A DNA stretch of 64,000 nt, from NCBI GenBank assembly GCA_026683435.1, contig GCA_026683435.1_4866.1; one strand, 5' to 3'. How positions within the stretch are numbered: position 1 is the stretch's first letter; each line of letters starts with the position of its first letter. Origin of the DNA: a phage. Shown here in pieces: positions 16,667 to 63,925 of this stretch. A program made the translations under genes and the position numbers. A model generated the notes under the pieces. It saw only the letters and a program-made list of their open reading frames with translations, was not told where the DNA came from and searched no databases.

Positions 16667-17464
16667 CTAGTTGTTAAAGTGTAGGTTGAGGCTGCCCTGG
16701 AAGTTCGTACATTTATCGGTCAGTTGCACTGACACGACTTTCGCGAACGCCGTATTTGCTCCCGGCAAGTCTGCAGGTACGCCGTCGAATACGACAGTGG
16801 CACCACGCAGGTTATACGGGGATGGGGTATCTTCAGCTACCCAAATCTCAGGAACACATTTGTTGAGTTCGATTGCCAACGCCGTGTCATCTACCTCGAT
16901 ACCGACCGCTAAGAGGCTCAGGAAACGAGAGATGTGGCTACAATCGATGTCACGCGAATAGATATACGCCTGACCCAACTGGATGTCCTGGTGATCCGGG
17001 TACAGAAGACCGCTCAACTCTGTATTGGTTACTACTTCTGCCAGAGGTGTAGCAGGTTTCAGCTCGATGACCGCTTGACTTCGCCACTCGTGGGAAGTTT
17101 CAACAGCAACGACTGTGTGCGTCTGTCCATCAATGGGGTTATCTTCGATATCCTCAGGTAAGATAGACAGATTAAAACGCTCGTTAATCGCCGCGAGTAA
17201 GTCGTGCGTGGTTTGCACGTCCTCGTCTCCAAAGGCAACATCGCCTGTAAGGTAGTCCTCTAATGGGCGACGATGGTAGTCCACAATCACTTGCGTACCT
17301 TCATCACCGCGCATCTTCGAGGTAAGGACTACCTCCGAATCACGACCGTCTACTGACACAACCTCCGGCAGTCCGATATCAACATCGTCAAAGGTAAGCG
17401 GTGGGCTTATCTTATTCTCTTCGTTGATGAGTTTTAGCAGATTCTGTTTTGAAGTAAAAGACAT
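16667..17464 (-). CDS. N-module paralog C-type (first gene of array), 265 aa
   Basis: MSFTSKQNLLKLINEENK...; C-terminal SLNLHFNN; divergent N-module. Confidence 0.55.
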   Translation of the reverse strand: MSFTSKQNLLKLINEENKISPPLTFDDVDIGLPEVVSVDGRDSEVVLTSKMRGDEGTQVIVDYHRRPLEDYLTGDVAFGDEDVQTTHDLLAAINERFNLSILPEDIEDNPIDGQTHTVVAVETSHEWRSQAVIELKPATPLAEVVTNTELSGLLYPDHQDIQLGQAYIYSRDIDCSHISRFLSLLAVGIEVDDTALAIELNKCVPEIWVAEDTPSPYNLRGATVVFDGVPADLPGANTAFAKVVSVQLTDKCTNFQGSLNLHFNN

Positions 17465-31863: not shown

Positions 31864-32154
31864 TTACGCCGTTACCGGAACAGGGGTGATTAACAGCTCC
31901 CCTTCCACCTCACGTAACTGATAACCGTACATAACGTTGTAGGATTTAATGCCGTCGCGCTGTTTGGCTTTCGCGACGAGCTTTTCCAACACGCGACTAT
32001 GTGCACGAGTCATCTCTTCTTTCGAATAAACAACTTGGAGTACGTGCTGTTCGTCAATAACGGCACGGAACTGCATTACGTCGCCATCCTCAACGTTGTA
32101 AACGACTTCTTTAGACTTCGACACTGTACGATTAATTTGCATTATTTTCTCCAT
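31864..32154 (-). CDS. hypothetical protein (96 aa)
   Basis: ORF track. Confidence 0.55.
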   Translation of the reverse strand: MEKIMQINRTVSKSKEVVYNVEDGDVMQFRAVIDEQHVLQVVYSKEEMTRAHSRVLEKLVAKAKQRDGIKSYNVMYGYQLREVEGELLITPVPVTA

Positions 32155-32944
32155 TAGTAGTTTTCAGGGCACGTCCGTACACATAACTTTCGGGTAGCCA
32201 ACCGTTTTCTAATAACCACATTGCGGCTGGTCCCCCAGTATATTGGTGGTAAGTGTAAACTAATTCATCCCCCACCGGTAATTCAGACTGGATACAATGC
32301 ATCAACAGTCCGAACTCCTCTCGAGTTAGAGTAACCACCCCTTCTGCGGTAAACCATCCACCAATAACCCAGCGTTGTCCACGATGTGAGAGCACTGTCA
32401 ACTTGTAGCTATCAGCGTTTCGCCACGACATCAGCCTCCCACCCATGACAAGCGTTGAGTAGATTGAGCTTGTACCGTAAAGCATCCTAACCCAATCCAA
32501 GAACGCTTTCTTACTATCGAACAACGAACTGACATCCCCACAGAAATCCTCATCGTGGCTAGGCACCGATGAATTAATTTTGCGGTAGTTTATCGTTTCG
32601 CAACAAAAGCCCATGCGAGCATATTCGTCCCCTTCAGAACGAGTAAAATGCATCGCGTAGTTACGCCCAGCTGCACGAAGTAAGGAATCCGCAAGCGAGG
32701 TTAACTGGGCGTCTAAAGCACGAACCATATTGATAACTTCTAACATGTATCCGTGGTCCAGACAGAGCACGATCGCATCAGGCGCAACTGTGTCCCGACT
32801 GAAAACTTCAAAGATTCGGTAGTAAAGACGACGTTCATCTTGTAACGTGGAAGGATCGATATCATTTAACAACGATAACGCTTTACGGTCTTCCAACCAC
32901 GTTCGGTCCAGAATCCTCTCCGTGCGTTCGATAACTCTCAGCAT
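32132..32944 (-). CDS. hypothetical protein (270 aa)
   Basis: ORF track. Confidence 0.6.
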   Translation of the reverse strand: MLRVIERTERILDRTWLEDRKALSLLNDIDPSTLQDERRLYYRIFEVFSRDTVAPDAIVLCLDHGYMLEVINMVRALDAQLTSLADSLLRAAGRNYAMHFTRSEGDEYARMGFCCETINYRKINSSVPSHDEDFCGDVSSLFDSKKAFLDWVRMLYGTSSIYSTLVMGGRLMSWRNADSYKLTVLSHRGQRWVIGGWFTAEGVVTLTREEFGLLMHCIQSELPVGDELVYTYHQYTGGPAAMWLLENGWLPESYVYGRALKTTNGENNAN

Positions 32945-32953
32945 ATTCTCTCC

Positions 32954-33757
32954 TTACGCAAGGGTGTAGTGATGCGTGATTACACGATACTCTAACCCAT
33001 CGATAGAAGGAAACTCGTGCTCTATCGCAACACCCATGTTGACCTTCTTACCTTTCTGTCCCGCCAAATGCAAAATGGCGTGGTAGTGTTTTAGAAACTC
33101 TACCGAGTAGGCAATCGGGTCAAAAGTTTGGCAGCAGAATTGCTCAGTAATGATGCTCTTCGGGAACTCCTTATAAAGCATTAATGAAAACGGTTTCTGA
33201 CCGTGCAACCCCACGAACGCAGAGACAAAACCATTTGCTAATTCACCCAACATCTCACGCGTTCCTGCGTCTTTTAGCGTAGGTCGCATTAGATAGCAAA
33301 CATCTTGGGTTTGTTCTAATGACAATGTCTCCAACGGGACAACCGATGGGTCTGACGTAAAACCGTATTTCGGACTGACAGTAATCTCCACACGCTTCGT
33401 TACAGCTTCGAACCCCAGACGTTGGTACAATGCCGCATGTTCGGTGTCATGCGGAAAACAGGTAATATCAAGCATCTGCACTTCCAGGAGTCGCGTTAAA
33501 CGCTTCCACTCGTGGAACAGGGGCTCGGAAAGCACGTGCAACTCGTAGATGTAGTAAACAATACCTGAACGACATCCACGAAAATACATTTGCGCACGAC
33601 CGCTATTGCTCAACACTAACCAATGATCGTCTTCTTGGTCTGCGACGGGTCGCAAATCTTGAATCCGTTCACGGAGTTGCCCCAAGGTGGTCAATCGACC
33701 ACTAAACTCTACGGTCAGGTCATTTTTGTCCATACCGTATAGATTAAATAGTTGCAT
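32954..33757 (-). CDS. hypothetical protein (267 aa), possible GNAT-like N-terminal half
   Basis: ...TEHAALYQRLGFEAV resembles a GNAT C-terminal motif; weak. Confidence 0.5.
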   Translation of the reverse strand: MQLFNLYGMDKNDLTVEFSGRLTTLGQLRERIQDLRPVADQEDDHWLVLSNSGRAQMYFRGCRSGIVYYIYELHVLSEPLFHEWKRLTRLLEVQMLDITCFPHDTEHAALYQRLGFEAVTKRVEITVSPKYGFTSDPSVVPLETLSLEQTQDVCYLMRPTLKDAGTREMLGELANGFVSAFVGLHGQKPFSLMLYKEFPKSIITEQFCCQTFDPIAYSVEFLKHYHAILHLAGQKGKKVNMGVAIEHEFPSIDGLEYRVITHHYTLA

Positions 33758-33766
33758 GTTGGTACC

Positions 33767-34585
33767 TTATAAGGTGCCGATTAGCTCTGTCACCGCTTTA
33801 CGTTTATTCGCATCCGCAGACATATATCGACCTACTTGAACTTCGCGCCAAGTAAAGCCGTAATAAATATCGCGTGTGAGTAACGTATCTGCGTTTGACA
33901 GAACGATCTTATTGCCATCGGCAGCTTGTTGTTTTAAAAGTTTCGCTAACTCGCGGTGGTCAGCTTGTGAAAATTCCTTGCTGTGATACTGCGCATGTTT
34001 AGCCGTATCCGAAAGTGGGATGTATGGCGGGTCAGCGTATATCACTGCGTTAGATGGGCACTTATTTAAGATGTCGCGGAAGTCGGCGCAGAGCAGCTCG
34101 ACGTTGGTTTCCGAACAACGTTTCGCCCACGCCAGAATTTCCTCTTCAGGGAAATAGACACCGTTCGGATGTTGACCATAAGGCACGTTAAACCCACCCG
34201 ACTGATTGTATCTGCACAAGCCGTTGTAACCATGACGTGTAAGATACAGGAACATCGCAGCGCGCTGGAGATTAGGTTTCCCCGTGGTTGTCTCGCTGTT
34301 AAATTCCTCGCGTCGTTTCATGTACAGACCGCGGTCCGTCCCATTTGCAAAGAGCGCCTTTGCTTCCAGTATCAACGCCTCCGGACGATCGCGCGCCATG
34401 GTCAATAACTCGATTAAGTCCGGGTTCGTGTCGCCGAGAATATAGTTCGGGTATTTAGTGTTTAAAAACACTGACCCTGCACCCACAAACGGTTCAACGA
34501 AATACTCAGCATCTGGAAGCACCTGTAGCAGCTCGGGAAGTACGCGACTCTTACCACCCATCCATTTTAAAATTGGTCTTATCAC
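33767..34585 (-). CDS. dam: DNA adenine methyltransferase (Dam-type, GATC-specific family)
   Basis: KWMGGKSRVLPEL...VEPFVGAGSVFLNT...YILGDTNPDLIEL and IYADPPYIPLS (DPPY motif) closely match E. coli Dam blocks. Confidence 0.9.
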   Translation of the reverse strand: MIRPILKWMGGKSRVLPELLQVLPDAEYFVEPFVGAGSVFLNTKYPNYILGDTNPDLIELLTMARDRPEALILEAKALFANGTDRGLYMKRREEFNSETTTGKPNLQRAAMFLYLTRHGYNGLCRYNQSGGFNVPYGQHPNGVYFPEEEILAWAKRCSETNVELLCADFRDILNKCPSNAVIYADPPYIPLSDTAKHAQYHSKEFSQADHRELAKLLKQQAADGNKIVLSNADTLLTRDIYYGFTWREVQVGRYMSADANKRKAVTELIGTL

Positions 34586-34591
34586 CCGTTA

Positions 34592-35620
34592 TCATCCTCT
34601 CATGCCAGATTGAAACATATCACTGATAGTCAGCCTGGTTGTAGTCTCCACCGGAATGCTAGGTTCTTCTTTCAGCACTCGATCGGCGCGGTTCCCATTC
34701 ACCCGTTTCCAGCTAATAAGTTCAGGATCGCGTTTCAACGTTAGTGTACGCAGTACCTGCTTGCAACGTAAGATGTTACCGTACAGGTGATTTGCTGGAT
34801 TATTATCAGCAGCTGTTTCAATATAGACTTGGTCGGAATGACGTTGTGCGAAATCGAACAGCGCGCCCATTAGCCGGCGACCAATGCCACGTTTACGATG
34901 CGTAGGTGCAACCGTCAAGCCAGAGAGTTCAACGACGCCTGGCGCGACCAAACGCATTTGGGCAATGCCGACGATATCACGACCGTCTCGCCAAATCGCG
35001 GTTTCCACATTAGCGTGCTGAATTCTTGCTATCACGGTTTCTGCCAAAGGACCAATGTGTGTATAATAGCCACGAATGTCATACCCCAGTTCCTCGCAAA
35101 TTGCACCACTGACCAGATTCAGGATAACGTCTTTGTCGTCCTTGGAAAGTTCTGCGTATGCGTCACCAGAAATAATCTTGATTTCCGATGCAGTTATTAC
35201 TTTATCAAACAGTTTAGAATGACATGCCCAGACGATATCTGAAAGAACAAACCCTTTTTCGACCAGTTTTTGTTCAACATCGCCAGTAGGTGCCGGGCAC
35301 GACATATATTCGAAGCCTGTGTGGTCGAGCACAAGGGCTAAACCAACTTTATCGAATGCCCCAGGTACAAACTCCTCAAAATAGTGACAGGTTAGTGTAG
35401 GGTCACCGTGTCGATAGGTGGCCACTAAATAACCCTCCCAGGTTTCTCTATTCCGTACCACGTAAACAGAATAAGTCTCGTCCTTTAGAAACTCTTTTAG
35501 GCGGCGTGCTCGTACAGTATCGCTACCGACGTTATTTTGGAACTCGGCAGAGCGAATGCTGCTGCGGAACAATTTAGCCACAGTTTTCATTGTAATGCCC
35601 TCAAAAGGTAATGCTGTCAC
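34592..35620 (-). CDS. two-domain protein with C-terminal GNAT acetyltransferase domain
   Basis: GNAT motif A LTVAPTHRKRGIGRRLMGALFDFAQ; start may be GTG at 35620 or ATG at 35590. Confidence 0.65.
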   Translation of the reverse strand: MTALPFEGITMKTVAKLFRSSIRSAEFQNNVGSDTVRARRLKEFLKDETYSVYVVRNRETWEGYLVATYRHGDPTLTCHYFEEFVPGAFDKVGLALVLDHTGFEYMSCPAPTGDVEQKLVEKGFVLSDIVWACHSKLFDKVITASEIKIISGDAYAELSKDDKDVILNLVSGAICEELGYDIRGYYTHIGPLAETVIARIQHANVETAIWRDGRDIVGIAQMRLVAPGVVELSGLTVAPTHRKRGIGRRLMGALFDFAQRHSDQVYIETAADNNPANHLYGNILRCKQVLRTLTLKRDPELISWKRVNGNRADRVLKEEPSIPVETTTRLTISDMFQSGMRG

Positions 35621-48981: not shown

Positions 48982-51165
48982 TCACTTTGGTAATTGGTCT
49001 AGCCGGAAGCCATCCATGTCACGGTCGGCCACGCGCTCGGCAAGCGTCCACTCCTCAAATGACGTCCGCACACGGATAATATCAATAGGCGGCTGTACCA
49101 TATCGACCACAACATCCTGCTCGACCTTCACGCGGATACCAGGGTAGACATTCATCCGCAACTTAATACGTTGCGGGATTGCCATTTCCTTTATCACGGG
49201 AGCGACAGGGATGGGCTTATCCGTCGTCATGAATGAACTACGGCTCACACGCTGCACGTCTGTCAGAGGGTAAATGATATTTGTTGTATCGGCAGCCTCT
49301 GCGAGAATATCATCCAGAATCGGGATGACTGGGTCGGTGACATCGTAGGTGTCAGAACCCATACGTGCGGCAAAATGGACAGTATACGACGAGAGTTTCG
49401 TCATTAACCGCACCATCGCGCGTTGTATTTCAGCTTGTGAGACAGACGCACGTGTTTCCAGATTAGTGGCCACGTTTAAAGCGTCGGTGGCGATGTCCTG
49501 CCAGGTTTCCGCAGAGACTAACTCGTAATCAAAACCAAACGTTTTGAAGAACTCGTCGTAATCGCGGTAAGGTAGGTCAAGATCGCACTTATAGTCACGG
49601 TAGTGGTAGGTAAACAACATTGTGCCGGCAGCACGGTCGGCTAGCTTGTGTCGATTATACGAGTAACGGTAACGACGACGCTTCTGCACCATGATTTCGC
49701 TGATTTCATCGTACAACTCATCTGCAGACGTCAAATTACCGATAACTTCATGATGTGTGTCCGTGTAGTAGTTAATCAACGCATTAAAACGGCCGGGCCA
49801 TGAGCTTGGCAGATGCTGCTCCATCTCATCAAAACCAACCCAGCGTTTGATTAGCACACCAAACACGTTCCACACCGGGATCTTATCCAGTGCTACACCC
49901 GAATAACCTTTGAAGCTCGCATACAAGAACAGTGCCAGCAGCTCTTTTGAAGTGAGCTTTAGCGTATCCCCGTTCGTTGGGTTAAGAATTTCGTGGTAAA
50001 TCTTGTACTGTCCACGTGCCACGATATGCATCCACTCGTTGAACAAGCCATGCATAAATTCCCAACGTTCGATGGCCTCTGGGTCAATCGCCGTTACCTC
50101 AACTAACTTCGTTGGCAGGTTCGGATACTGCGTCAAGCTCAAACGCCGATCGAGGTCTTCCTGATAGTCAGGTTCGTGCACTGGGTTATTGTACGCCAGA
50201 TTGATTTCTTTCTGGATGATGTCAGTTGTGCTAACAATGTCCAGGTCACGGCCCGAGTCACGTTCAGTATAGTTAAGCGATGACTGGTAGCCGATCGGGA
50301 GTGGTGTCAGGTCATCATCACTGCCCGTCGTCGGGTCGTGAATCTGCTGGGCGACCTTATATCCAACAGCAGGCATACCCCAACCCGTCAGCAGGGTGTC
50401 AATCATCCAGGTAAAGATTTCTTCCTTACCAGAGTTACGTTCCCAGTAACGGATATTGCGATACAGTGTGAATTTCTGCTTGAGGGTCAGGTACGGCATG
50501 AACTCGTGCAGTTCTTGGTGTGAAGCCAAGAACTCGGTCACGTAGTAGGAGTGCGTTTCGGTCGTAAACTGTAACCGTTTGCGGATGTACATGATAAGCC
50601 CCGGCCACACCGGGTACTGTTGCATGTAAAAGGCCAGTACGAAACAGTCGTTGTGAACTTTCCAGCCATCGGCCATGAAACGCACATGTGCTGCACGAAT
50701 AAAGTTCTCAATATGTGTAATTAACGACGTCTCCTGCGGTTCAACTAAAGCAGGATCGTAATACAAAATTGAGCAGTCATCGACACGTATCGCATATGCA
50801 ATATCAATCGGATTGAAAGTACCGCGAATATATACTGCGTAGTCCGGATACTCGGCGATTAAGTCGTCGATATACTCCGGGTTAGAACGATATACGTTTG
50901 AGGTCTTTTTATGACGGGAGAGGTTCTGCGTCGTTAACTCTATCTGCTCTTGCGTGTCGAGTGACGTAATGTATATCGGCTTGTCGATTGCATGTCGTTT
51001 ACCTGCTAAGTGTAGGTAATACCGCCACGTCTCACGGTTCTCGGAAACGAAACCGCCGTTTTTGGTTATTGCCAGGTTCATCTGTTGTGCGATGCTCTCT
51101 GATTTGACAATCAGGGATTTCGCTAACTGGATAGCCTGGTCACGAAAAATGTTAAATCTCTGCAT
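48982..51165 (-). CDS. large hypothetical protein (about 728 aa)
   Basis: Track start 51177 is TTG; ATG at 51165 (MQRFNIF...); no nucleotide-binding motif seen. Confidence 0.7.
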   Translation of the reverse strand: MQRFNIFRDQAIQLAKSLIVKSESIAQQMNLAITKNGGFVSENRETWRYYLHLAGKRHAIDKPIYITSLDTQEQIELTTQNLSRHKKTSNVYRSNPEYIDDLIAEYPDYAVYIRGTFNPIDIAYAIRVDDCSILYYDPALVEPQETSLITHIENFIRAAHVRFMADGWKVHNDCFVLAFYMQQYPVWPGLIMYIRKRLQFTTETHSYYVTEFLASHQELHEFMPYLTLKQKFTLYRNIRYWERNSGKEEIFTWMIDTLLTGWGMPAVGYKVAQQIHDPTTGSDDDLTPLPIGYQSSLNYTERDSGRDLDIVSTTDIIQKEINLAYNNPVHEPDYQEDLDRRLSLTQYPNLPTKLVEVTAIDPEAIERWEFMHGLFNEWMHIVARGQYKIYHEILNPTNGDTLKLTSKELLALFLYASFKGYSGVALDKIPVWNVFGVLIKRWVGFDEMEQHLPSSWPGRFNALINYYTDTHHEVIGNLTSADELYDEISEIMVQKRRRYRYSYNRHKLADRAAGTMLFTYHYRDYKCDLDLPYRDYDEFFKTFGFDYELVSAETWQDIATDALNVATNLETRASVSQAEIQRAMVRLMTKLSSYTVHFAARMGSDTYDVTDPVIPILDDILAEAADTTNIIYPLTDVQRVSRSSFMTTDKPIPVAPVIKEMAIPQRIKLRMNVYPGIRVKVEQDVVVDMVQPPIDIIRVRTSFEEWTLAERVADRDMDGFRLDQLPK

Positions 51166-51176
51166 CGGAGACCCCA

Positions 51177-53921
51177 ATGGAAGATATTAGTAAATTAACG
51201 GGCGACCCCGCGGTAGCTGCCATACTGCGTAAGTCCACGAGCCCGTCGGCTCAGCAGCAACGCGGTAAGCGTGAAGATGGCGGTGTTACACCAACCCGTA
51301 CAGAACTCACGGGCATTGCGAGTAGCCGCATTCGCACCGTTAAAAATGCCGAACGTATCTTTGATGCGCTCCCTGAGTTAGAGGTCATTGTTACCATCGC
51401 GACCTCCTCGCTCCTGTCCACAAAAGATTTGATTAACACCACGCTGATTTACGACAACGTGGCTGATATCCCGATCGACCTGCGTCAGCAGTTATTGGAA
51501 CCTGTGCGTGAATTCCATGACCACACGCGTCAGTTACCCAACAAACTGTATCAGTGGATTTACGATGCACTGAAATCCAAAGGCGCGAGCCCGGTGTTGC
51601 TGATTTCAGATACCGGATTCGATGAACTCTTCGGCTTAAAGCCGTCTGTTGCAACCGAATCGTTGCGCCGTAGCCAATCCGACTTCTTTGAACGTCAGTT
51701 GGGTATCCTGGGCAAGATTGGCGGTGAAAACAAACCGAAGGTTGGTGTAGAAAGTATTCTGGGTCGTGCACGTGGAGCTGACAAGCCCACCAAGCCACAA
51801 ACCATTAAACTTAACTTTGCAGCAGCCCCTAACAGTCCGTTTAAAGCAGACGGTATGTTAGCTTCCCTGGATATCGTTATCACCGACAACCCGCGTATTA
51901 CCCTGCTACCAGAGGCTTATCGCCGTGTGGCACAGGAGAATGCTCGCACCGGCCTGTTCGGTCAGTTAGAGCAGTACGCATATGAACAACCTTCTACGCC
52001 GACAGGTGCGTCAGCGTATAACGCTGACCAGTTCACAGACAGCGAACAAGAGAAGGCAAAACTCGGTTTAATCAACATCGGCGACCTCAACGAAGCGTAC
52101 CAGAAAACGCCTGAGCAAAAGCTTTACGGCGAAGTACCGAAGATGAGTTTCTCCGATGCCAACAAAATCGAATACACGGAACGATTACTGCCAGCAGAGT
52201 CCACACTCCCACTCGTTATCGGTGACGATGTTCGTAACCCCATAGGTTATCTGGCCATCGTTGACGAAATGGGTAACTTCATTAACTCGCGTTCCACACT
52301 TTACGGTGATGCGAACTTCATGAACTACCTGAACAACGACGGTATGGTGGATTCAACAATCAACCGTGCAAATCTGGGGATGGGCAACACAACCCGAATC
52401 ACACCAGACATTGCTAACCGCTTAACAGCGCGTTATGGTGAGATTGCTGAAGACCAGCTAACCAAAGCTCTGGGTGAGGCGTTGGGTGGTGCTGAGATTA
52501 GCATGACAGTAACCGAAACGTTCAGCCGTATCATGTTAGCACGCCATCTGGCAAAACGCCACACGCAGGTTATCTATATTCCTGCGGAAAACCTTTGCTA
52601 CTTCGCCACAGACTTTGATGAAGACGGCATCGGTGTGTCTATTACCGAACGTTCGTTCGTTATCTCTACTGTCCGTATGGCGCTGCTGTTCGCTACCATG
52701 AACTCTGCGGTGTTAAACTCTGCCCGTCACATGCAGTACGACATTGAGTTGGCACCAGACGACATGAACGGTCAGAAAACAATTGACCAGCTGAAAACAG
52801 ACATCATGAACTCCTATAACCGTCGTCAACCGATGTGGGGGGACATGAACGACACCTGGGCAATGACGACAAACGCAGGTATTGCGTTTAACGTTATTGG
52901 TAACGACTACTACGGTAGTACCAAAGTGTCTGTGTCGGATACTACGCCGGATTATAAATACCCGGATAAGGATTTCGACGAAGGTCTGTTACGTCGCACT
53001 TGTCACATCGCTGGCGTTGACCCCGACCTGGTAATGACCCCCGAGAACATCGAATTCGCTTCACAGATTTTCTCTAAATCGTTACTGGTCACCCAGCAGG
53101 TTGTTAAGAAGCAAGAGATTCTCTCTAAGCCGCTGACACGTTACGTAGTTAATGGGATGTTGGCCTCTCCGTCGTTGCAATCAGCGATGATTAAAATCAT
53201 TGCAGAGTACATCAACGCTAACGGTAATGGGATGACTACTGACCAGATTACGAAAAAGGTCTCTGAGTACCTGGCTGCGTTTATCAACGGTATGAAAGTA
53301 ACCTTACCACCGCCAGACACCTCTGCAGCAGCTTCGCAGATGGAGCTGTTCGATAAACGTACGGAGTTCTTTGAGAAGCTGGCTGATCTGGTTGTAACGG
53401 ATGACATTGCTGCGCAACTCCAGCAAGAAGGCATCACGATGGACCCGAACGATCTGAAGACGATGATCAAGTCCTTCTATACGCGCAACTGGCTGCGTAA
53501 ACAAGGCATTGAAACCGACTTCTTCGATCTGGTTTACGACGATGATTCTCGTCAGGACAACATCACCATGATGACTGATGAAGCGATGGCTGCTTCGAAA
53601 ACGCTGATTCAATTGGCGAAACGTTTTACAGGTCGTCTGGAAACGTTGGCGAAAAATGCTGACCTTGACCCTAACGAATCTGCTGGCGGATTCAGCGGTG
53701 GTTTTGATGCGGGCGGTGACACCGGTGGCGGCGAGGGAGATCTCGGTGGTGGAGGTGACGATGATTTAGACCTCGATTTCGATACGGATAACGGAACCGA
53801 CGGGGATAGTACAGGGGAAACGACTGAGTCGACCGAAACCACGGAAACAACTACCGAGGGAACGGAAGGCACAGAAGGTGGTGAAGGAACTACCGACGAC
53901 AACCCAGACAACGTCCTCTAA
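51177..53921 (+). CDS. 914-aa protein with acidic low-complexity C-terminal tail; candidate portal protein (speculative)
   Basis: ATG at 51177 with GGAG SD; C-terminus DLDLDFDTDNGTDGDSTGETTESTETTETTTEGTEGTEGGEGTTDDNPDNVL; one of only two plus-strand genes. Confidence 0.65.
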   Translation: MEDISKLTGDPAVAAILRKSTSPSAQQQRGKREDGGVTPTRTELTGIASSRIRTVKNAERIFDALPELEVIVTIATSSLLSTKDLINTTLIYDNVADIPIDLRQQLLEPVREFHDHTRQLPNKLYQWIYDALKSKGASPVLLISDTGFDELFGLKPSVATESLRRSQSDFFERQLGILGKIGGENKPKVGVESILGRARGADKPTKPQTIKLNFAAAPNSPFKADGMLASLDIVITDNPRITLLPEAYRRVAQENARTGLFGQLEQYAYEQPSTPTGASAYNADQFTDSEQEKAKLGLINIGDLNEAYQKTPEQKLYGEVPKMSFSDANKIEYTERLLPAESTLPLVIGDDVRNPIGYLAIVDEMGNFINSRSTLYGDANFMNYLNNDGMVDSTINRANLGMGNTTRITPDIANRLTARYGEIAEDQLTKALGEALGGAEISMTVTETFSRIMLARHLAKRHTQVIYIPAENLCYFATDFDEDGIGVSITERSFVISTVRMALLFATMNSAVLNSARHMQYDIELAPDDMNGQKTIDQLKTDIMNSYNRRQPMWGDMNDTWAMTTNAGIAFNVIGNDYYGSTKVSVSDTTPDYKYPDKDFDEGLLRRTCHIAGVDPDLVMTPENIEFASQIFSKSLLVTQQVVKKQEILSKPLTRYVVNGMLASPSLQSAMIKIIAEYINANGNGMTTDQITKKVSEYLAAFINGMKVTLPPPDTSAAASQMELFDKRTEFFEKLADLVVTDDIAAQLQQEGITMDPNDLKTMIKSFYTRNWLRKQGIETDFFDLVYDDDSRQDNITMMTDEAMAASKTLIQLAKRFTGRLETLAKNADLDPNESAGGFSGGFDAGGDTGGGEGDLGGGGDDDLDLDFDTDNGTDGDSTGETTESTETTETTTEGTEGTEGGEGTTDDNPDNVL

Positions 53922-53922: not shown

Positions 53923-53986
53923 CAAAAAAAAGAAAAAGAAATAAGGTTTACCTCTCCCTTCGGGGAGAGGTACCTTTTCTTTTTTA
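53923..53986. terminator. bidirectional hairpin terminator between convergent genes
   Basis: acctctccc-ttcg-gggagaggt flanked by an A-run upstream and ttttcttttttaat downstream. Confidence 0.75.
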
Positions 53987-54652: not shown

Positions 54653-56323
54653 TTAGTACAACACTGGTGCAGTTTTCTCACCATTGCTCAGAAGCAGGTA
54701 GGTGCGCTGCGGCAGCTGCATTAACACAATTGCATGTGGCACGTTTTCCTGTACTGCTTCGTAGATAGACACAACCGGGTCTGCGGTATTGCCCAGAGAC
54801 GCTACCGTAACTACGTCGTGTTTATCAACAGAATGGTACATGCCTGGAATCACGATGGTGAACTGGCTCTGAATCAGGTTAACCACCTTGCCAGAATCGC
54901 TCAGCTTGATAGTCAGTTTGCGCAGAGAGTTCGCTACCATCAGGAACAGGTCACGGAACCAGTCTTCATATTCACTTACGCCGTTGTCGCCAGCGGTTGC
55001 AGTGAACAGATCTTTTACGAAGAAATCAATATCGCTGATCTTCCGTTCGAAATCGATAGCTTTGAACTTCGGCACATCTTTACCGCGCTTAGTGCCCAGC
55101 GACAGCGCGTTGTGTACCAGGAAAGTGATATTCGCCAGGTACGCATTAGCAAAGCGAGAAATCTCACTGATAACCACTTCTGCTTCACTGCTGTTCGCAA
55201 TCGCATATTCGTGCAGTTCTTTCGTGTTCTTACGCAGTTCATCGATCGTACGCTTCACCTTAGCCATGATAGTTTCAACATCTTCTACCAACGCCAAGTT
55301 GTCGAGATCGGATTTCAGTGCGTCGTGCTTAGCAACAAATTGTTTCATACGCTCGCACATATCAGTGTTAACACCGACCAGATACGCGCGATAACTATCC
55401 CGTGCACGCACAATCAGGTCAGCCCCGTCGTAGAAAACAACCTCTTCATTACCGTTAAAGATATCTTGCAACGGTGTAGCCCAATCACGCGTTTCCGCGT
55501 AAACAGATTGCTTAATGCGACTGTTAGCTTCCTTCGCTGGAATCGACATTTTAAGCTCGGGGGTTTTCAGCTCGTGAAGTGCGTAGTCTTCCATCAAATC
55601 AATCTCCTGCAGAATGTTGTTAATTGGGCCATTGATAGTGTCCTTCTCGGTTTCTTCTGTTGCGCCGAGTGGGGAAAGCACTGGGTTATTAACTGTAGCA
55701 TTAGACACCGGCATTGGTTGTACAGGCACCGGTGCTGGTTCAGGCCGGGGCTGTTGTGCTGGGGCTACTTGCGCCGGTTGCGGGTTCAGAATAGGATCAT
55801 TGACCAGGTTAAGACCTTCACCGCCAGCAATCACGGTTAGTGCCGCATCTGTGTTACCAATCTTAACACCACCAGATGGCGCAGAAGACATGGTCAGGCC
55901 ATCAGTAACACGAACACCGCCAGAACTGTTACCGCCCAGTAACCCACCTGCGTTGCTACCACCACCTAAACCACCACTGCCACCCAAACCGCCAGACTGC
56001 TGAGAACGAATTTCGGCAAGAATCTTACCGACTTGTTCCCAAGCATTAACCAGTTTGGTGTGACGATCGTCGTTGTACGCGTCGCCTGCGTTATGCACCT
56101 GCTGATAGGCAGCTGCTTTATACGCATCGACCGCATATGCGATAACCTGTGCTTCACTACCCCCTTTGGATGCTGCCCATGCCGCAACATACGTCGCAAT
56201 CTTTAACGCCTGATCTGGCGGAATGCTACGGCTGCGCATCACATTATTCAGCTGCGACAGTACCGCGTCCTGATCGAGGTGTTTAACGATGACGTTTTTG
56301 ATTTGTTCAACAGTAATGCTCAT
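54653..56323 (-). CDS. structural-type protein (556 aa) with Gly-rich linker
   Basis: QQSGGLGGSGGLGGGSNAGGLLGGNSSGG linker, then Pro/Ala/Gln-rich stretch. Confidence 0.7.
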   Translation of the reverse strand: MSITVEQIKNVIVKHLDQDAVLSQLNNVMRSRSIPPDQALKIATYVAAWAASKGGSEAQVIAYAVDAYKAAAYQQVHNAGDAYNDDRHTKLVNAWEQVGKILAEIRSQQSGGLGGSGGLGGGSNAGGLLGGNSSGGVRVTDGLTMSSAPSGGVKIGNTDAALTVIAGGEGLNLVNDPILNPQPAQVAPAQQPRPEPAPVPVQPMPVSNATVNNPVLSPLGATEETEKDTINGPINNILQEIDLMEDYALHELKTPELKMSIPAKEANSRIKQSVYAETRDWATPLQDIFNGNEEVVFYDGADLIVRARDSYRAYLVGVNTDMCERMKQFVAKHDALKSDLDNLALVEDVETIMAKVKRTIDELRKNTKELHEYAIANSSEAEVVISEISRFANAYLANITFLVHNALSLGTKRGKDVPKFKAIDFERKISDIDFFVKDLFTATAGDNGVSEYEDWFRDLFLMVANSLRKLTIKLSDSGKVVNLIQSQFTIVIPGMYHSVDKHDVVTVASLGNTADPVVSIYEAVQENVPHAIVLMQLPQRTYLLLSNGEKTAPVLY

Positions 56324-56354: not shown

Positions 56355-58133
56355 TTAGCGGCCGATTTTAGCAATGTCTTCTTCGGTCGGTCTGATGTAC
56401 GGGTCCAGTTTAGGATTCCGCATCATTACCAAACTTGGGTTGGTCTTCATGTACGGGTTGAGGATGTTTGCCTTAAACGGTGCCGACTTAGGAATATAGT
56501 AGACGTTACCGCATTCCAGATGCGACGCAGATGCGTGCTTAGTACGGTCGTTCAAGTTAACGGTCTTGCCTCCTTTCTTCGAACGCTTAGCATCGGTTTC
56601 GGTTTGACCGATGGCGTGCGTAGACACTGCCAATACCATTGATTCTGTAGAGGCATTGAAGAAACTGATACCGCCGTTGCTCGTAATGGTGCGCATCACC
56701 AGATTGAGCACGATCTGTTTGTTCAGTGCGTCTCGAATAGACTTCGCCGCTGTCTCTGGAGTCCGATGTTCCAGCTGCCCCAGTTTCCAACGTATTTTCG
56801 AGATCGTTGTGGTAAAGCCGCGTTGACCCAACAGTAAATAATCGGTTACCGTGAGACGTTTTCCGTACATAGACGGAATATCATCTTGTTTGGTAAGACG
56901 AGTACGCACCATCAGCTGCGTGGTGTACCAGAGGAAATCAAACATATCCAAATCATCAGGGATGGACGGATCGTTTGCCATCAGCTCACCACGGAAGGTG
57001 CTGTTGACATAGCGTTCGCATTCCTGGAAGTGGCTGTCCATACTGCGACTCAGTTCGATATCCGAGGGCTTCAGTCCGCGAATACTACGACCCAACACTT
57101 CGCGCCAGGAGGCTGCAGAGTTGAGGTTCGCAATATCTTCGTCCATTGCCATTTCGTTAATCTGTGTAAACAGCCCCGGCAGTGTTGGTGCACGACCGTT
57201 CTTACTGTTCTGTTTACCTGCGTAGTAGTGCGCTGCTTTGAAGAACGCAGCAGTCGCTACCAGCAACAGATGTTCATTCTGATCCCAACGCCCTGCATCG
57301 GTGTTAGGCATATCTTCACGTTTAACCAACAGTACGTACTGGATGGTCTTCGCGAGTTGTGGCTCACCGGACTGAATCACCACATACTTCGTTAAGTCCA
57401 CATCACGTACTTTAATCGCTGGCCAAATCGCCACATCAACACCCGCATAACGCTTCACAGCTTGTTTAAAGCCGTAGCGCCCGAAGAGCCAATACATCAA
57501 CGGCTTCTCATCGGTGTCGTGTCCAATCTGTCCGGTTGAGACAAACAGATTCGATGTACCTGGCAAGAACAGCTGCTCAGGGCGACCATTCACCAGAATC
57601 TTCGTTGGTTTCTTACAGAACTTGATAGACACCTTGCGGGTGAAGTCAAAGTTAATAAAGATACCACCGTGCTCACGACAAATACCAGGTTGGTGGATTA
57701 CAGGTGCTACGTGGTACGTTGTACCGTAGTAGTTCATTAAGCCGCCACGACGAATAAACGGCAGGCTCATTGGTCGTTGCACCGGGCGAGGATCGCCTGG
57801 AACTCGGAACGAGGCCATTACCATATACGTGTCAGTGGATGAGATGTTAATAATTGACCGGCCACGATTGTTTCGTGAATTGTTATCCGACTTCGATAAC
57901 TTAAAGATAAAAGCTTCAAACGGGGACATCTGACGGCAGCCTAACACCGTTAACCCTTCTGGTAATTTCGGGTTATCGATTTCATCATACGTCAACTCAC
58001 GACGTAGAATGGTTGCCACACGATCATGTATCCCGTCTTTAGCTTGTGTGTACCCAACTCCTTCTGCAATTGCACGATTAAAAGGCACTATTTCGCCTGC
58101 CTCTTTAATCTTCCTAATCGCATCTTTAAACAC
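56355..58133 (-). CDS. large hypothetical protein (592 aa)
   Basis: ORF track; no recognisable motif. Confidence 0.7.
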   Translation of the reverse strand: MFKDAIRKIKEAGEIVPFNRAIAEGVGYTQAKDGIHDRVATILRRELTYDEIDNPKLPEGLTVLGCRQMSPFEAFIFKLSKSDNNSRNNRGRSIINISSTDTYMVMASFRVPGDPRPVQRPMSLPFIRRGGLMNYYGTTYHVAPVIHQPGICREHGGIFINFDFTRKVSIKFCKKPTKILVNGRPEQLFLPGTSNLFVSTGQIGHDTDEKPLMYWLFGRYGFKQAVKRYAGVDVAIWPAIKVRDVDLTKYVVIQSGEPQLAKTIQYVLLVKREDMPNTDAGRWDQNEHLLLVATAAFFKAAHYYAGKQNSKNGRAPTLPGLFTQINEMAMDEDIANLNSAASWREVLGRSIRGLKPSDIELSRSMDSHFQECERYVNSTFRGELMANDPSIPDDLDMFDFLWYTTQLMVRTRLTKQDDIPSMYGKRLTVTDYLLLGQRGFTTTISKIRWKLGQLEHRTPETAAKSIRDALNKQIVLNLVMRTITSNGGISFFNASTESMVLAVSTHAIGQTETDAKRSKKGGKTVNLNDRTKHASASHLECGNVYYIPKSAPFKANILNPYMKTNPSLVMMRNPKLDPYIRPTEEDIAKIGR

Positions 58134-59481: not shown

Positions 59482-61782
59482 TTAGCCGCCAGCGCCTTCA
59501 CCGCCAGTACCTGGCTGGGTAGCGCCGCCGCCAACATCACCCGCATTACCGCCATTAGTACCGCCAGTACCGTTGGAAGTAGTAGTGACGTTGAACGCCA
59601 GTTTCTCTTCCACGAACTTGGTGATACCTTTAATCCAGATCAGACCAGTGATCGGGCAGTGGCAGATGTGTGCGTTACGAGGCTGTACTGCCAGCTCTTT
59701 GCTGGTAGCGCCGTTACGCTGGATGTTGATGTTGGTTACCATGATCGGAGACCAGAAGTGGTTACCCCAGTTCAGAACACAGTAAGAACCATCATCAGCG
59801 GTTGGAACTTTCAGAACCCACTGCAGGCGGCGAGTCCAGCTGCCGTCAGCTTCGTTCTTCACACGCCAGCGGTCATCGTTGGTGGTGATAACTTCGTACT
59901 CGTAGCGATCGCCCAGCAGACGCTGGTCACCCTGAACCAGCAGCAGCATTGCAGCAGTCGGTTCGTCAGTTGCGATAACAACTTTCGGCAGTGCGTTCGG
60001 ATCCGCGGTCAGCAGGCGCAGAGCCGGCATGAAACGAGAATCCTGGATAGCACGAGTTACCTGGTCGCCGATACGCTGTACCAGACCCTGACGGGCGTTG
60101 ATGAGCGCATCTTTGGTATCCAGAGACTGGATCACTTTGTCCACTTCGTAGTCGCTTTCGCTGTACCACGGAGCAACCCAGTGACGGCCCAGGCCGCGGA
60201 TAGCAGGTTTGTCCCACGGAGTGATCATGGACGCAGCTGCGTTCTTAACCGCTTCGGTGTAAGACAGAGTCTGAGTGATAGCCAGCATTTCGTTACGGAT
60301 GTTAACCGCAGAAACGAGGTCGTCCAGACGTTCGGTGTCGTCGTATTCAACGCCAACCGGAGATTTGGTCATGATCGGAGAACCGTACTGCAGTTTGTAG
60401 TTCTCTTGTTCCCAAATCGGGTCGAGCAGAAGACCCTGGGTTCTCCGGTTCTCGTTGGTACGAGTACCGTCGAAGCGCCAGCCCAGCAGCTCCAGTTTCA
60501 GGTTGTCGATGATCACTTTACCGGTGCCGCTTTCGATATCAACAGCAGTACCAGTTGCGTCGTACAGACCTTCGATTTCCAGAGACGGTGCAGTCACGTC
60601 AACACGACCAGAGAACTGACCGTTGGTGAACAGAGACATGCTGATGTTCATGGAATAACGAATGGTGTAATCGTTCTGTGCCAGAGCGGCCAGTGCCGGG
60701 ATTTCAGCACCTTTCCAGTCCAGAGACTTGGCGTTCAGGGAGAACACAGTGCGACGGAACTGCAGGACCAGCTCACGGCCATCACCTTCAGGAGGACGCT
60801 GGAAGGTAGCGAACTGCATGTCGCGTACGTTCAGTTTGATCAGCGCACCATCTTTCGCTTCTTCAGTCGGCTTACGCACAGACAGCAGCAGGCTACCCAG
60901 CGCTGCACCCGGTGCGATTTCGTCGGTTTCATCGTAACCTTCCTGCACGATACCTGGATGGGCAGACAGCTGGAACAGATTCAGACGACGTTCAGAGAAG
61001 CTCAGGTAGTTGGTCGGATACGCCGGCACACGACCCAGCTGAACGTTTTCGTTTTCGATGATGTCTTCGGATACGAAGAACTTCGCGTTCTCACCGGTTT
61101 CCATCACGTAAGGTACGATACGGATAGCATCGTCCTGCAGGACTTTGTGGTTAGACAGCGCGTTATGCAGCGGCTGACGGTTGTCTTCAACCACGTCTTT
61201 GGTCAGCAGGGCGTTCAGGATACCACGAGTTACAGTAGTAACTTTGGTACGAACGGTGATGCCGACGTCGTTGGTGTCCACAGTGATGGTCGGGAACAGG
61301 GTTTCTGCAAACTTGGATTGAGTTTCCAGAGCACGCACGTTCAGCGTCCAGGTCAGACCCAGGTTTTTGTCCAGGTCTTTGTTGGTGTAGTATTCGGTTG
61401 CGACCAGCGGAGTTTTACCGTAGTCAGCAGCCAGAGATGCTGCACCAGAAATAGCGATCGGCATGTAGCTGGCATATTCCGGCTTCGCGCTCTCAGCAGC
61501 AACACGGGTCATGAAGTCGTCTTCGTGACCGGCAGCAGCCAGAATCATCGCAGAAGCAACCTGAGCAGCGTGGCTCATGGTTTTGCCAGGGTTTACAGCT
61601 TCGTAGTGCTGCTGAGCAGTGTCACGCAGGTTGGTGAAGCCGGCAGCATTTTTACGTACAGATTCGCCAACGGCTACGGTTTGCCATACGTCATTAGCGG
61701 AAGAGCCTGCCTTGGCAGCAGCGACCAGAGCATTGCCCTGCTGAACCAGCTGGTCCAGACTAGCGATACGGGTATCTTTCAT
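59482..61782 (-). CDS. abundant structural protein, 766 aa; candidate major capsid protein of a large phage (speculative)
   Basis: Strongly optimised codon usage (ctg, cgt, ggt, acc, gaa); Gly-rich C-terminal tail; strong terminator; a capsid protein of this size would suggest a jumbo phage. Confidence 0.7.
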   Translation of the reverse strand: MKDTRIASLDQLVQQGNALVAAAKAGSSANDVWQTVAVGESVRKNAAGFTNLRDTAQQHYEAVNPGKTMSHAAQVASAMILAAAGHEDDFMTRVAAESAKPEYASYMPIAISGAASLAADYGKTPLVATEYYTNKDLDKNLGLTWTLNVRALETQSKFAETLFPTITVDTNDVGITVRTKVTTVTRGILNALLTKDVVEDNRQPLHNALSNHKVLQDDAIRIVPYVMETGENAKFFVSEDIIENENVQLGRVPAYPTNYLSFSERRLNLFQLSAHPGIVQEGYDETDEIAPGAALGSLLLSVRKPTEEAKDGALIKLNVRDMQFATFQRPPEGDGRELVLQFRRTVFSLNAKSLDWKGAEIPALAALAQNDYTIRYSMNISMSLFTNGQFSGRVDVTAPSLEIEGLYDATGTAVDIESGTGKVIIDNLKLELLGWRFDGTRTNENRRTQGLLLDPIWEQENYKLQYGSPIMTKSPVGVEYDDTERLDDLVSAVNIRNEMLAITQTLSYTEAVKNAAASMITPWDKPAIRGLGRHWVAPWYSESDYEVDKVIQSLDTKDALINARQGLVQRIGDQVTRAIQDSRFMPALRLLTADPNALPKVVIATDEPTAAMLLLVQGDQRLLGDRYEYEVITTNDDRWRVKNEADGSWTRRLQWVLKVPTADDGSYCVLNWGNHFWSPIMVTNINIQRNGATSKELAVQPRNAHICHCPITGLIWIKGITKFVEEKLAFNVTTTSNGTGGTNGGNAGDVGGGATQPGTGGEGAGG

Positions 61783-61794
61783 TTCAAGTTTACC

Positions 61795-62319
61795 TTATTT
61801 AGATAAATGACATGCGTACAACTGCGTCAGCACTTCGTGCGCAGCAAACTGCGTCGACGTACTGAACGTATCATCCACGACACGAGTCTTGGGACGCATA
61901 TATTTAAAAAGTTCTGCGCAGAACATCTTTTTCGCAGCGTGGTCTTCACTTAAAGAAAAACCCGGTCCGGATTTAGCTTCTGCAAAAGACGCCACAACAA
62001 CATCGCCACGTTGTGAGAACACCCAACGTAAACGACCGTCGAATGATTCCCCATATAAATCAGCAAGGGTTTCATTCGTACCTTTCTCAACCAGGTTTAA
62101 GACCTGGTCATAATAAAGAGTCGGAAGTGCAGGTGGTGCCATAATCGATTTATAAATCGAAATAGGGTCACTCACTGGCAGTATGATGGAACTAAAGCCC
62201 GACGAGCAGTCATATAACCAGTTAAAGAAGCTTGCTTGGAGTTCCTCCAACTTTTTAACGCCAGCCCCTTTATCTATGTTAGATTGAACTTCCCACGGTG
62301 GACTAAAACGAATTTGCAT
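61795..62319 (-). CDS. hypothetical protein (about 174 aa)
   Basis: Track ORF extends to 62373; first ATG at 62319 (MQIRFSPPWEV...). Confidence 0.55.
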   Translation of the reverse strand: MQIRFSPPWEVQSNIDKGAGVKKLEELQASFFNWLYDCSSGFSSIILPVSDPISIYKSIMAPPALPTLYYDQVLNLVEKGTNETLADLYGESFDGRLRWVFSQRGDVVVASFAEAKSGPGFSLSEDHAAKKMFCAELFKYMRPKTRVVDDTFSTSTQFAAHEVLTQLYACHLSK

Positions 62320-62333
62320 TTTAAGGATGCTCC

Positions 62334-63896
62334 ATGAATAGTAAAATGATGTTGATAACCGCCTTAGCCGCACTGTATACAGAATCTATGCTGACGGACC
62401 CTAGCAAGGATCATGATGTCATAAGAAAAGTTCTGATGCAGATCAAGCTTCCGGAATATGCGGAAGATGGCGAAGAGCGCTTTGCACTCATCGAGATCAA
62501 GGACATTATCACATCTATCATAGACGGCGGCATGGAATACGACCACGCGAGCGTTATGAAGCGCTTGAAGCTGGCCACCACTCAAGTACGTCCTCTATAC
62601 GATACGATTACCAAATTCCTCGAAGACGATTTGCCCGAGGAAGAAGACAAACGTACCGAGCATCTTAATCGACAACTGTCTCAATATTATTTCCAATTAC
62701 GTCAATGTTTACAGAGCGTCGAACTCAAAACAAAAATGGGTCGCGCGTTTGGAGCATTGAATGGAACTGAGACACGTGTTGATCTGAACACCGCAGTGCT
62801 CGAACTCAAAGAGGCGCTATCTACGTTCGGTGAACGCTCTCATAATAAGATTCCATCATTGGTCGGTGAGCTGGTTACAGATAATCGGGCTCCGTTTGTT
62901 AAAGTGTTCGACTCGATTAACAAGAAAGCTGCAGGTAATGGTTTGCAGACGGGCTGGAAAGCCATTAACCAAATGCTCGGTTGTAACAAAGGGATTACCG
63001 AAGAACTGTGGCTAATGCCAGCGTTACCTTTTAACTGTAAGTCTTTGTTCAGTCTCTTGCTGAGCCTATCGATTCCTATCTTCAACACGCCTGAGAAAGT
63101 AATGGCGGATGTGAAGGGCACACTGCAACCAATTATTCTTGACTTGAGTTTAGAAAACGAACTCGACGTTAACTTAGCTTACGGCTATCAAGCACTGTAC
63201 GGTCATTTTGAAGGACAAGTTCCACAGATGACCATTTCACAGGATGCAACCGCTGAAGAGAAGTTAGCACACACAACAGCAATGTCTGATTACCTCTGTG
63301 GTAAGATTCGCGCAAACGGTTGGGACTACGTTTTCCAAAAGCACACCAACTCCGATTTTAAAGTGCACTACATCAACGACCTTATTCTCGACTTACGTCG
63401 TCGTGGTTATCATGTTGTTGGCATTCGCGCAGACTACTTAGGCACAATCAGCAAAGCAGGACACGGCAACGGTATTGCCGGGAGTGATATCAAAGAAATT
63501 TATCGTATTGCTCGTAACATTCAAGTGGTACGCAACCGTGGGTTCTTAATTGCCCCACACCAGATTTCCCCAGAAGGTAAGCGCTTAAAAGCGTTAGACC
63601 CGGTAGGCTTCTGTAAGAACTTACCTGGTCGTGGTCTTTACGATAGTTGTTCGAGCCTTGATAACGAGGCCGATGGTGAAATGTATTTTAACAAGCGTGT
63701 GGTCAACGGCCATAGCTTCTTAGAAGTTCAACGCGGTAAACACCGCACCATTATCGATACTAAAGAATCTTATCACTACACAGTGATACCTTTCCAGGAT
63801 GTTGGCATCCTGCCATGGGATTGTGATAAAGAAGAAACCGTAACAGCGTCGTCTATCAACTTCTTCACCGGTGGAATGGGTGATGATTTGTTCTAA
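62334..63896 (+). CDS. hypothetical protein (520 aa), plus strand
   Basis: ATG at 62334 with AAGGA SD; head-to-head with 61795..62319. Confidence 0.7.
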   Translation: MNSKMMLITALAALYTESMLTDPSKDHDVIRKVLMQIKLPEYAEDGEERFALIEIKDIITSIIDGGMEYDHASVMKRLKLATTQVRPLYDTITKFLEDDLPEEEDKRTEHLNRQLSQYYFQLRQCLQSVELKTKMGRAFGALNGTETRVDLNTAVLELKEALSTFGERSHNKIPSLVGELVTDNRAPFVKVFDSINKKAAGNGLQTGWKAINQMLGCNKGITEELWLMPALPFNCKSLFSLLLSLSIPIFNTPEKVMADVKGTLQPIILDLSLENELDVNLAYGYQALYGHFEGQVPQMTISQDATAEEKLAHTTAMSDYLCGKIRANGWDYVFQKHTNSDFKVHYINDLILDLRRRGYHVVGIRADYLGTISKAGHGNGIAGSDIKEIYRIARNIQVVRNRGFLIAPHQISPEGKRLKALDPVGFCKNLPGRGLYDSCSSLDNEADGEMYFNKRVVNGHSFLEVQRGKHRTIIDTKESYHYTVIPFQDVGILPWDCDKEETVTASSINFFTGGMGDDLF

Positions 63897-63902: not shown

Positions 63903-63925
63903 CTGGGGAGCTTAGGCTCCCCTAC
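63903..63925 (+). terminator. possible stem-loop/terminator after plus-strand gene
   Basis: ggggagc-ttag-gctcccc; weak T-run, low confidence. Confidence 0.4.

Follow-up and report, generated by a model that had tools for sequence, protein, structure and literature searches.

Two genes in a 64,000-nucleotide (nt) stretch of phage DNA (contig GCA_026683435.1_4866.1 of GenBank assembly GCA_026683435.1; hereafter the window), encoding a portal protein and a divergent DnaB-like replicative helicase, run rightwards and stand start-to-start with leftward genes across spacers of only 11 and 14 nt. The portal gene faces the gene of a baseplate-wedge protein (the portal junction) and the helicase gene faces a gene of 174 amino acids (aa) that is the first of the capsid-gene unit (the helicase junction); coordinates are collected in Table 1. 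The explanation that best accounts for these junctions, and one we regard as probable, is that the portal and helicase genes are divergent single-gene units, inverted within a long leftward gene run, whose promoters are embedded in their partners and are read by a phage RNA polymerase. Each promoter would sit within the first few hundred bases of the partner's coding sequence, the ribosome-binding sites of both genes would share the spacer, and terminators would close the far ends of the units, that of the portal gene insulating it in both directions. The location of the promoters inside coding sequence is, from the sequence, quite likely. The specific positions proposed at the helicase junction are more tentative, falling at or a little short of an even call, and the position proposed at the portal junction is doubtful. 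Nucleotide-level constraint speaks for internal promoters at the helicase junction only; none that was significant was found at the portal junction.

In DNA the window shares 97–98.5% identity with Salmonella phage SPN3US and with close relatives of that phage (Escherichia phage EC001, Proteus phage 7 and the SPFM phages). All belong to the genus Seoulvirus and are jumbo phages of 240 kb; the nearest records overall, at 98%, are EC001 and Proteus phage 7. Judged by this identity, the source is an SPN3US-type, phiKZ-like (Chimalliviridae) jumbo phage. The SPN3US annotation covering the same 64 kb matches the window, with the counterpart of the locus at NC_027402 77974-82910.

Layout and spacers of the two junctions

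A preliminary description of this DNA, made from the letters alone, took the portal and helicase genes to be the only long plus-strand genes. This is borne out by the SPN3US annotation of the same 64 kb, in which all other genes lie on the opposite strand; other long plus-strand open reading frames (ORFs), for example 59659..61806, sit antisense within minus-strand genes. The head-to-head spacers of 11 and 14 nt were likewise recovered both from the ORF listing and by direct reading of the sequence. At the portal junction the minus-strand gene begins with the ATG at 51165 (MQRFNIF...; complement 51163-51165) and the portal gene with the ATG at 51177, the gap between them being cggagacccca. The minus-strand gene at the helicase junction starts at 62319 (MQIRFSPPWE...) and the helicase ATG is at 62334, leaving the gap tttaaggatgctcc. 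In-frame stops only 7 (portal) and 3 (helicase) codons upstream pin the plus-strand starts. The minus-strand starts are kept in every relative examined (12 genomes at the portal junction and 7 at the helicase junction), and the N-termini of all four proteins are conserved in all relatives as MQR[F/Y]NIF, M[E/D]D..KL, M[Q/R/L]IRFSP and MN.K.MLITALA, with a ribosome-binding site directly before each.

Both spacers carry opposed Shine-Dalgarno motifs. At the portal junction GGAG (51167-51170) precedes the portal ATG by 6 nt; on the opposite strand GGGG (51172-51175) stands at the same distance ahead of the wedge ATG. The sequence CGGAGACCCC is identical here in 11 of 13 genome rows (8 of 9 in the alignment); the spacer of the CR5/EarlPhillipIV pair is palindromic, GGAGACAACTCC, with GGAG on both strands, and that of Goslar reads CCTCCAAGGAG. 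At the helicase junction AAGGA (62323-62327) serves the helicase gene and minus-strand GGAG (62330-62333) the 174-aa gene; TGCTCCATGAA, AAGG and CTCC (minus-strand GGAG) are invariant in 7 genomes. The tetramer TATG is found in neither spacer. The preliminary description had reasoned that the spacers must hold overlapping or internal promoters. Internal promoters survive as a deduction, since 11 and 14 nt are too short for a promoter, but the spacers themselves hold Shine-Dalgarno motifs and no promoters. If the ribosome-binding sites are used, each mRNA would therefore start beyond the start codon of the partner gene, which would place the promoters in the partner's coding sequence and make the 5′ ends of the paired mRNAs complementary.

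The same divergent layout is found across phiKZ-like phages. In Seoulvirus, Machinavirus, Wellingtonvirus and Derbicusvirus the spacer measures 11–15 nt at the portal junction (12 genomes, with portal identity down to 53%) and 11–14 nt at the helicase junction (8 genomes); in Goslar the two spacers span 27 and 39 nt, and in phiKZ 35 and 211 nt. PhiPA3 and Xoo-sp14 likewise keep the wedge/portal divergence, and a scan of IMG/VR contributed only 4 further loci. Since both junctions recur in every relative examined, their tightness is not due to chance. SPN3US itself (gp81 and 'virion structural protein 9') shares with the window 97% locus DNA identity, the gene order, the 11-nt spacer and the protease motifs AXE-161 and AQE-254 of the portal; it differs by a few substitutions and a one-residue length difference in the low-complexity tail of that protein. 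The phiKZ genes for gp128 and gp129 are homologues in the same PHROGs and also stand start-to-start, the lone portal gene again ending at a convergent junction with a hairpin, but their spacer measures 35 nt against 11 in the window, the portals are about 24% identical and the genes around the pair run in mixed directions. At the phiKZ helicase junction the helicase homologue faces, as in the window, a gene of about 175 aa heading the capsid gene (gp120), with a TATG upstream on the small gene's strand. That TATG, the candidate P119L promoter, stands 47 nt ahead of the gp119 ATG within a non-coding spacer of 211 nt, whereas in the window the spacer is 14 nt, the candidate TATG falls within the helicase coding sequence, 101 nt before the ATG, and the small gene has no detectable homology to its phiKZ counterpart. 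Goslar retains the same block in leftward surroundings: the lone rightward genes for the portal (gp36) and for gp43 (at the helicase position) stand start-to-start with gp35 and gp42, the capsid gene (gp41) lies between, and the spacer has a dual ribosome-binding site as in the window.

On these comparisons the strand switch is an old, conserved hallmark of the phiKZ-like core genome, and neither an insertion nor a chance event; particular to the SPN3US clade, among the genomes compared, is the compression of both spacers to almost nothing. Neither the genes nor their functions and order are new, all being documented in SPN3US, phiKZ and Goslar. The arrangement is unsurprising, because the layout is an old conserved block and because transcription in these phages relies on RNA polymerases of their own, whose promoters are very small; the preliminary description had recognised neither point.

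Promoter candidates and alternative readings

PhiKZ-like phages do not depend on the host polymerase; they transcribe with their own RNA polymerases, which recognise very small promoters (PMC4666361, PMC7598289). The late promoter of phiKZ is TATG, with the start at the G, and is necessary in vitro (PMC4666361, PMC7598289). P119L is the reference phiKZ late promoter for in-vitro and structural work (PMC4666361, PMC7618050), and from its position the TATG 47 nt before gp119 appears to be P119L. A promoter that amounts to little beyond TATG at the start could easily be fitted into coding sequence.

A nucleotide alignment of 7 genomes over the helicase junction (±560 nt) contains 11 invariant runs of at least 8 nt; synonymous constraint was assessed with a permutation test on codon alignments of 5–9 diverged genomes. 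TATG was the only motif tested on prior grounds. Full conservation is seen at 5 of the 13 TATG/CATA sites of this junction, as against 10.4% of all 4-mers (binomial P=0.008), and four lie within invariant runs where 1.1 would be expected (P=0.026). Within about 20–110 nt upstream, on the gene's own strand, a TATG invariant in the 7 genomes occurs at 56 nt for the helicase gene and at 101 nt for the 174-aa/capsid unit. The first belongs to the block TTATCTATGT, which is identical in all 7 genomes and obliges the opposite gene to use the rare Ile codon ATA; a conserved CTTTTTwAC some 19–26 nt upstream of this candidate weakly recalls the phiKZ middle-promoter element centred near −24. The second belongs to TTCTTATGAC, also identical in the 7 genomes, which fixes an ATA and the only AGA among the 25 Arg codons of the helicase gene. 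In the codon usage of the window ATA makes up 12% of Ile codons and AGA 5% of Arg codons. By analogy the 62418-62427 candidate is the positional equivalent of phiKZ P119L. Synonymous constraint is significant in codons 8–17 (p=0.011) and 133–142 (p=0.005) of the 174-aa gene and in codons 164–173 of the helicase gene (p=0.002). If both candidate starts are right, the helicase and capsid-unit mRNAs would overlap at their 5′ ends by about 143 nt (62278-62420). What the sequences show directly is the identity of the genes, the conserved layout, the spacers with their paired ribosome-binding sites, the conservation of the terminator after the portal gene and the nucleotide-level constraint at the helicase junction; we infer the promoter positions, a TATG-type chemistry in this clade and the overlap of the transcripts.

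Two further invariant blocks were noted near this junction. A 23-nt block, GTTCTGCGCAGAACTTTTTAAAT (61902-61924, minus strand, codons 133–140 of the 174-aa gene), is identical in 7 genomes whose proteins are 59–85% identical. It includes a perfect 14-nt palindrome, GTTCTGC followed by GCAGAAC (61911-61924), and then T5, lies 120–140 nt before the capsid ATG and has the strongest constraint of its gene (p=0.005); the palindrome has no second copy in the window. The block may act as an attenuator or terminator, bind a protein or belong to a capsid promoter, as a TATG follows it in most genomes. The 15-nt block TCATAATAAGATTCC (62840-62854, helicase codons 169–174) is also invariant in 7 genomes and has the top constraint of the helicase gene (p=0.002). 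Its minus-strand reading, GGAATCTTATTATGA, is a T-rich TATG 522 nt before the 174-aa gene, perhaps a second leftward promoter or some other embedded element.

Several results weigh against promoters embedded in this way. At the portal junction no synonymous constraint reached significance (portal codons 2–10, p=0.88; wedge windows, p>0.66; near-junction range 0.66–0.99); the constraint peaks of the portal/wedge pair lie in the conserved portal core, away from the junction. The weak portal candidate at 50910-50913 is the only TATG/CATA of the wedge gene conserved in all 9 genomes, and a single synonymous site is involved. The 5′ part of the portal gene yielded no conserved promoter-like block that could serve the wedge gene: on the minus strand the nearest TATG (G at 51221) is unconserved, occurring only in the SPN3US subgroup, and the sole conserved one, at 51979, is 814 nt from the wedge gene and overlaps an AYE protease-type motif. 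A search of the 300 nt around the portal junction of Goslar found no TATG, so TATG is perhaps not the rule outside phiKZ. In the intergenic regions of the window TATG is not enriched (1 per 268 nt; the figure for the whole minus strand is 1 per 328 nt). Longer invariant runs are numerous in the capsid gene and contain no TATG, and conservation alone may stem from codon bias. Our literature search found no published transcript map for an SPN3US-type phage.

Other motifs were tried and rejected. The extended motifs TTYTTATGA, TTATGAC and TATGAC occur in the window at or below chance. Host sigma-70 promoters number 13 sites against 19.5 expected, and the sole match at the helicase junction (62345-62318, minus strand) would start transcription after the ATG that it served. 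An AT-rich motif, GATAGATRTTATCT, is not a plausible driver of the junction genes, as none of its 7 intergenic minus-strand sites is near either junction.

The far ends of the units bear on how the leftward genes are transcribed. The gap that separates the portal stop codon from that of the next leftward gene holds a terminator, called on both strands by the scan; its 10-bp GC-rich hairpin (53949-53972) is TACCTCTCCC-TTCG-GGGAGAGGTA. An A-run, hairpin and T-run are found at the same place in 10 of 10 relatives; the stems are unrelated and fold with energies of −23 to −37 kcal/mol, and we argue that the element is functional because the design is kept while the stem sequence changes. The predicted two-way terminator argues that the portal gene is a single-gene unit and that leftward transcripts are kept out of portal antisense; if they stop before the portal gene, the wedge gene would therefore need a promoter of its own within 51166-53948. 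An alternative gives internal promoters to the plus-strand genes only and has the wedge and 174-aa/capsid genes reached by read-through, antisense across the portal and helicase genes. The lack of a conserved promoter-like block in the 5′ portal gene suits it, as do the phiKZ terminators, which have been described as leaky, with read-through transcripts, and the hairpin after the helicase gene, which has no good T-run. It has to contend with a canonical two-way terminator whose design is kept in 10 relatives, with the conserved minus-strand TATG block ahead of the 174-aa gene and with phiKZ having its own promoter, P119L, at the equivalent place; we consider it unlikely. At the position of the helicase-gene hairpin, pSal-SNUABM-04 and CR5 have strong hairpins.

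Alternatively, the mRNAs of a pair might be leaderless or nearly so, with transcription starting inside the spacers or at the start codons and no overlap between the two. Very short spacers would suit such starts, and the core of a phiKZ-type promoter does overlap the start site, yet the Shine-Dalgarno motifs, conserved at normal spacing on both strands, matter only if they are transcribed. There is, moreover, no TATG in either spacer, and the polymerase would still have to occupy the neighbour's coding sequence. We regard leaderless starts as very improbable. That the tight spacing is an artefact of start-codon choice, with the real starts further downstream and ordinary intergenic promoters, is scarcely credible: longer mechanical ORFs do offer TTG at 51177 and GTG at 62373, the use of which makes the genes overlap, and one public annotation has the helicase-junction genes overlapping through its choice of start codon, but these alternative starts shorten the spacers instead of lengthening them, and the conserved N-termini directly after a ribosome-binding site and the nearby upstream stops noted above both oppose it.

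Divergent units with partner-embedded promoters would also permit a regulatory link. The helicase and capsid-operon promoters would then be mutually embedded and fire through each other, and late capsid transcription could shut off the helicase as a temporal switch; this is speculative and we think it improbable. Were it true, the complementary 5′ ends, spanning both ribosome-binding sites and both start codons, could act by interference or by RNA pairing. Such a switch would be visible only as invariant synonymous sites, and the portal/wedge pair could be coupled likewise.

The components of the locus (portal, baseplate wedge, helicase, capsid unit) can be named with confidence. What is fresh is a prediction, and a modest one: that the helicase promoter and the P119L counterpart lie inside coding sequence at two invariant 10-nt blocks. 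These blocks (62270-62279 and 62418-62427) are testable candidates for the promoters of enterobacterial jumbo phages. If confirmed, they would help to define what the non-virion RNA polymerase recognises beyond the TATG known from phiKZ (PMC4666361, PMC7598289).

Genes at the junctions and other features of the window

Table 1 Features at and around the two divergent junctions (window coordinates; promoter entries are candidates, terminator and hairpin entries are predictions)
Feature	Position	Strand	Basis or remark
Baseplate-wedge protein gene, 727 aa	48982..51165	-	SPN3US 'virion structural protein 9'; phiKZ gp128 homologue; divergent partner of portal gene
Weak candidate portal promoter core, TATG in cttttTATGAC	50910..50913	+	In wedge gene; G 264 nt before portal ATG
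11-nt divergent spacer, cGGAGaCCCCa	51166..51176		Dual Shine-Dalgarno; no room for promoter
Portal protein gene, 914 aa	51177..53921	+	SPN3US gp81, phiKZ gp129 family; homology to solved portals; PHROG 3004
Acidic Gly-/Thr-rich low-complexity C-terminal tail of portal, ~80 residues	53674..53918	+	Composition
Two-way intrinsic terminator (A-run, hairpin, T-run)	53923..53986	both	After portal gene
Phage multisubunit RNA polymerase subunit gene	56355..58133		Position matches phiKZ gp123 (non-virion RNA polymerase subunit)
Major capsid protein gene, 766 aa	59482..61782	-	Pfam PF25620 PhiKZ_MCP, E=8e-226; PHROG 3231; SPN3US 'major head protein'
174-aa gene, first of capsid-gene unit	61795..62319	-	PHROG 8266
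Candidate helicase promoter, invariant TTATCTATGT	62270..62279	+	Inside 174-aa gene; TATG G at 62278, 56 nt before helicase ATG
14-nt divergent spacer, tttAAGGAtgCTCC	62320..62333		Dual Shine-Dalgarno
Divergent DnaB-like replicative helicase gene, 520 aa	62334..63896	+	Pfam PF20307; PHROG 3213
Candidate promoter of 174-aa/capsid unit, invariant TTCTTATGAC	62418..62427	-	Inside helicase gene; TATG G at 62420, 101 nt before ATG 62319
Hairpin after helicase stop, second convergent junction	63905..63922		Scan; less canonical than portal terminator

The gene identities at both junctions are near certain. The 914-aa protein shares 99.5% amino-acid identity with SPN3US gp81 over residues 1–836 and, as the preliminary description had proposed checking, turns out to be a portal protein on comparison with solved chains of phiKZ (PDB 9xpe_M, PHIKZ129, 12 chains; E=1.4e-49) and Goslar (PDB 11ed_J, 'Portal Protein gp36'; E=1.5e-26, residues 34–902). 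It falls in PHROG 3004 (1094 bits), a family common to phiKZ gp129. One search counts against the assignment, in that no Pfam-A family matched at E<=0.01; the protein has diverged too far from the Pfam models to be recognised by them, which leaves the direct PDB matches unaffected. A twelve-fold portal ring is known from cryo-electron microscopy of phiKZ and Goslar, and we take it to hold for SPN3US.

Two AXE protease motifs in the window portal, ATE ending at residue 161 and AQE ending at residue 254, mark an N-terminal propeptide. SPN3US gp81 was identified as the portal by mass spectrometry and has 12 copies and a 254-residue propeptide (PMC5694885, PMC10052503). The prohead protease removes this N-terminal propeptide at AXE motifs, cleavage having been demonstrated for SPN3US gp81 only (PMC5694885, PMC10052503). 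The C-terminus had been described as D/E/T/G low-complexity sequence, and the composition agrees: D, E, T, G, S and N make up 53 of the last 60 residues, which have a net charge of −21. In 10 relatives the sequence of this tail is unconserved and turns over fast, but the acidic Gly-rich composition persists, the last 60 residues having a net charge of −17 to −26, and phiKZ gp129 also ends in a similar low-complexity tail. The crown domain of the Goslar portal comprises residues 778–923 of 969. By analogy the tail follows the crown domain and should face the capsid interior.

The 727-aa protein matches PDB 9xqs_C (PHIKZ128) at E=1.6e-84 over residues 4–640 and Goslar-type chains at E of about 1e-64, and belongs to PHROG 3222, the family common to phiKZ gp128. 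In the phiKZ structural atlas gp128 is a subunit of the baseplate-wedge heterotrimer (PMC13250141). The helicase matches the Pfam 'divergent DnaB-like ATPase' family PF20307 at E=1e-124 (416 bits against a cut-off of 26, residues 150–517) and is 27% identical to the phiKZ helicase (E=9e-46). The 174-aa gene sits between the helicase and capsid genes, as do its counterparts in phiKZ (gp119) and Goslar, and the major capsid gene lies directly downstream of it. Homology of the 174-aa protein to PHIKZ119 was rejected: BLASTP gave E=1.2, the two fall in different families (PHROG 8266 versus 14501), and only size and position match.

Two of the long plus-strand ORFs merit description. One of 715 aa (59659..61806) is antisense over the whole major capsid gene, and one of 368 aa (54734..55840) lies opposite the gene 54653..56323. 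The annotations of the relatives contain no counterpart of either, and both are most likely shadow ORFs that arise from codon composition.

TATG is strand-asymmetric across the window, with 68 occurrences on the plus and 195 on the minus strand where a random 4-mer would be expected about 250 times per strand. The asymmetry could come from codon usage (the rare ATA) or from selection against antisense promoter cores. The AT-rich motif occurs on the minus strand as TTTCAGATAGATRTTATCTTAGGGAGA at 22972-22985, 30598-30611, 38883-38896, 59189-59202 and 59387-59400 and as the variant GATATATATTACTTAGGTGAGAG at 18428-18441 and 37182-37195. It is confined to intergenic gaps, on the transcribed strand, often just past a hairpin and T-run; allowing up to 3 mismatches there are 14 matches against 3.6 expected. 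Between the capsid gene and the one after it, a small ORF has a copy of the motif on either side. By analogy the motif is probably the early promoter of the clade, used by the virion RNA polymerase. No RNA family in Rfam matched anywhere in the window.

A comparison of ORF lists suggests that gene sizes in the tail-protein region (window about 22000-25800; NC_027402 105800-110650) differ from those of SPN3US: the window has a 719-aa ORF where SPN3US has a 1005-aa 'tail protein' and a 'tail fiber protein'. This might reflect exchange of a host-range module; the closest relatives are reported from Escherichia and Proteus hosts. Finally, there are tandem runs of similar-sized minus-strand genes, ten of about 265–470 aa at 7982..17464 and four of about 270–340 aa at 32132..35620, which look, from the gene sizes, like paralogue arrays. 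The SPN3US counterpart of the first is annotated as virion structural proteins, and the SPN3US region of the second with a DNA methyltransferase, an acetyltransferase and hypothetical proteins. An expanded family of DUF7941 virion proteins in Goslar may be compared with these runs.

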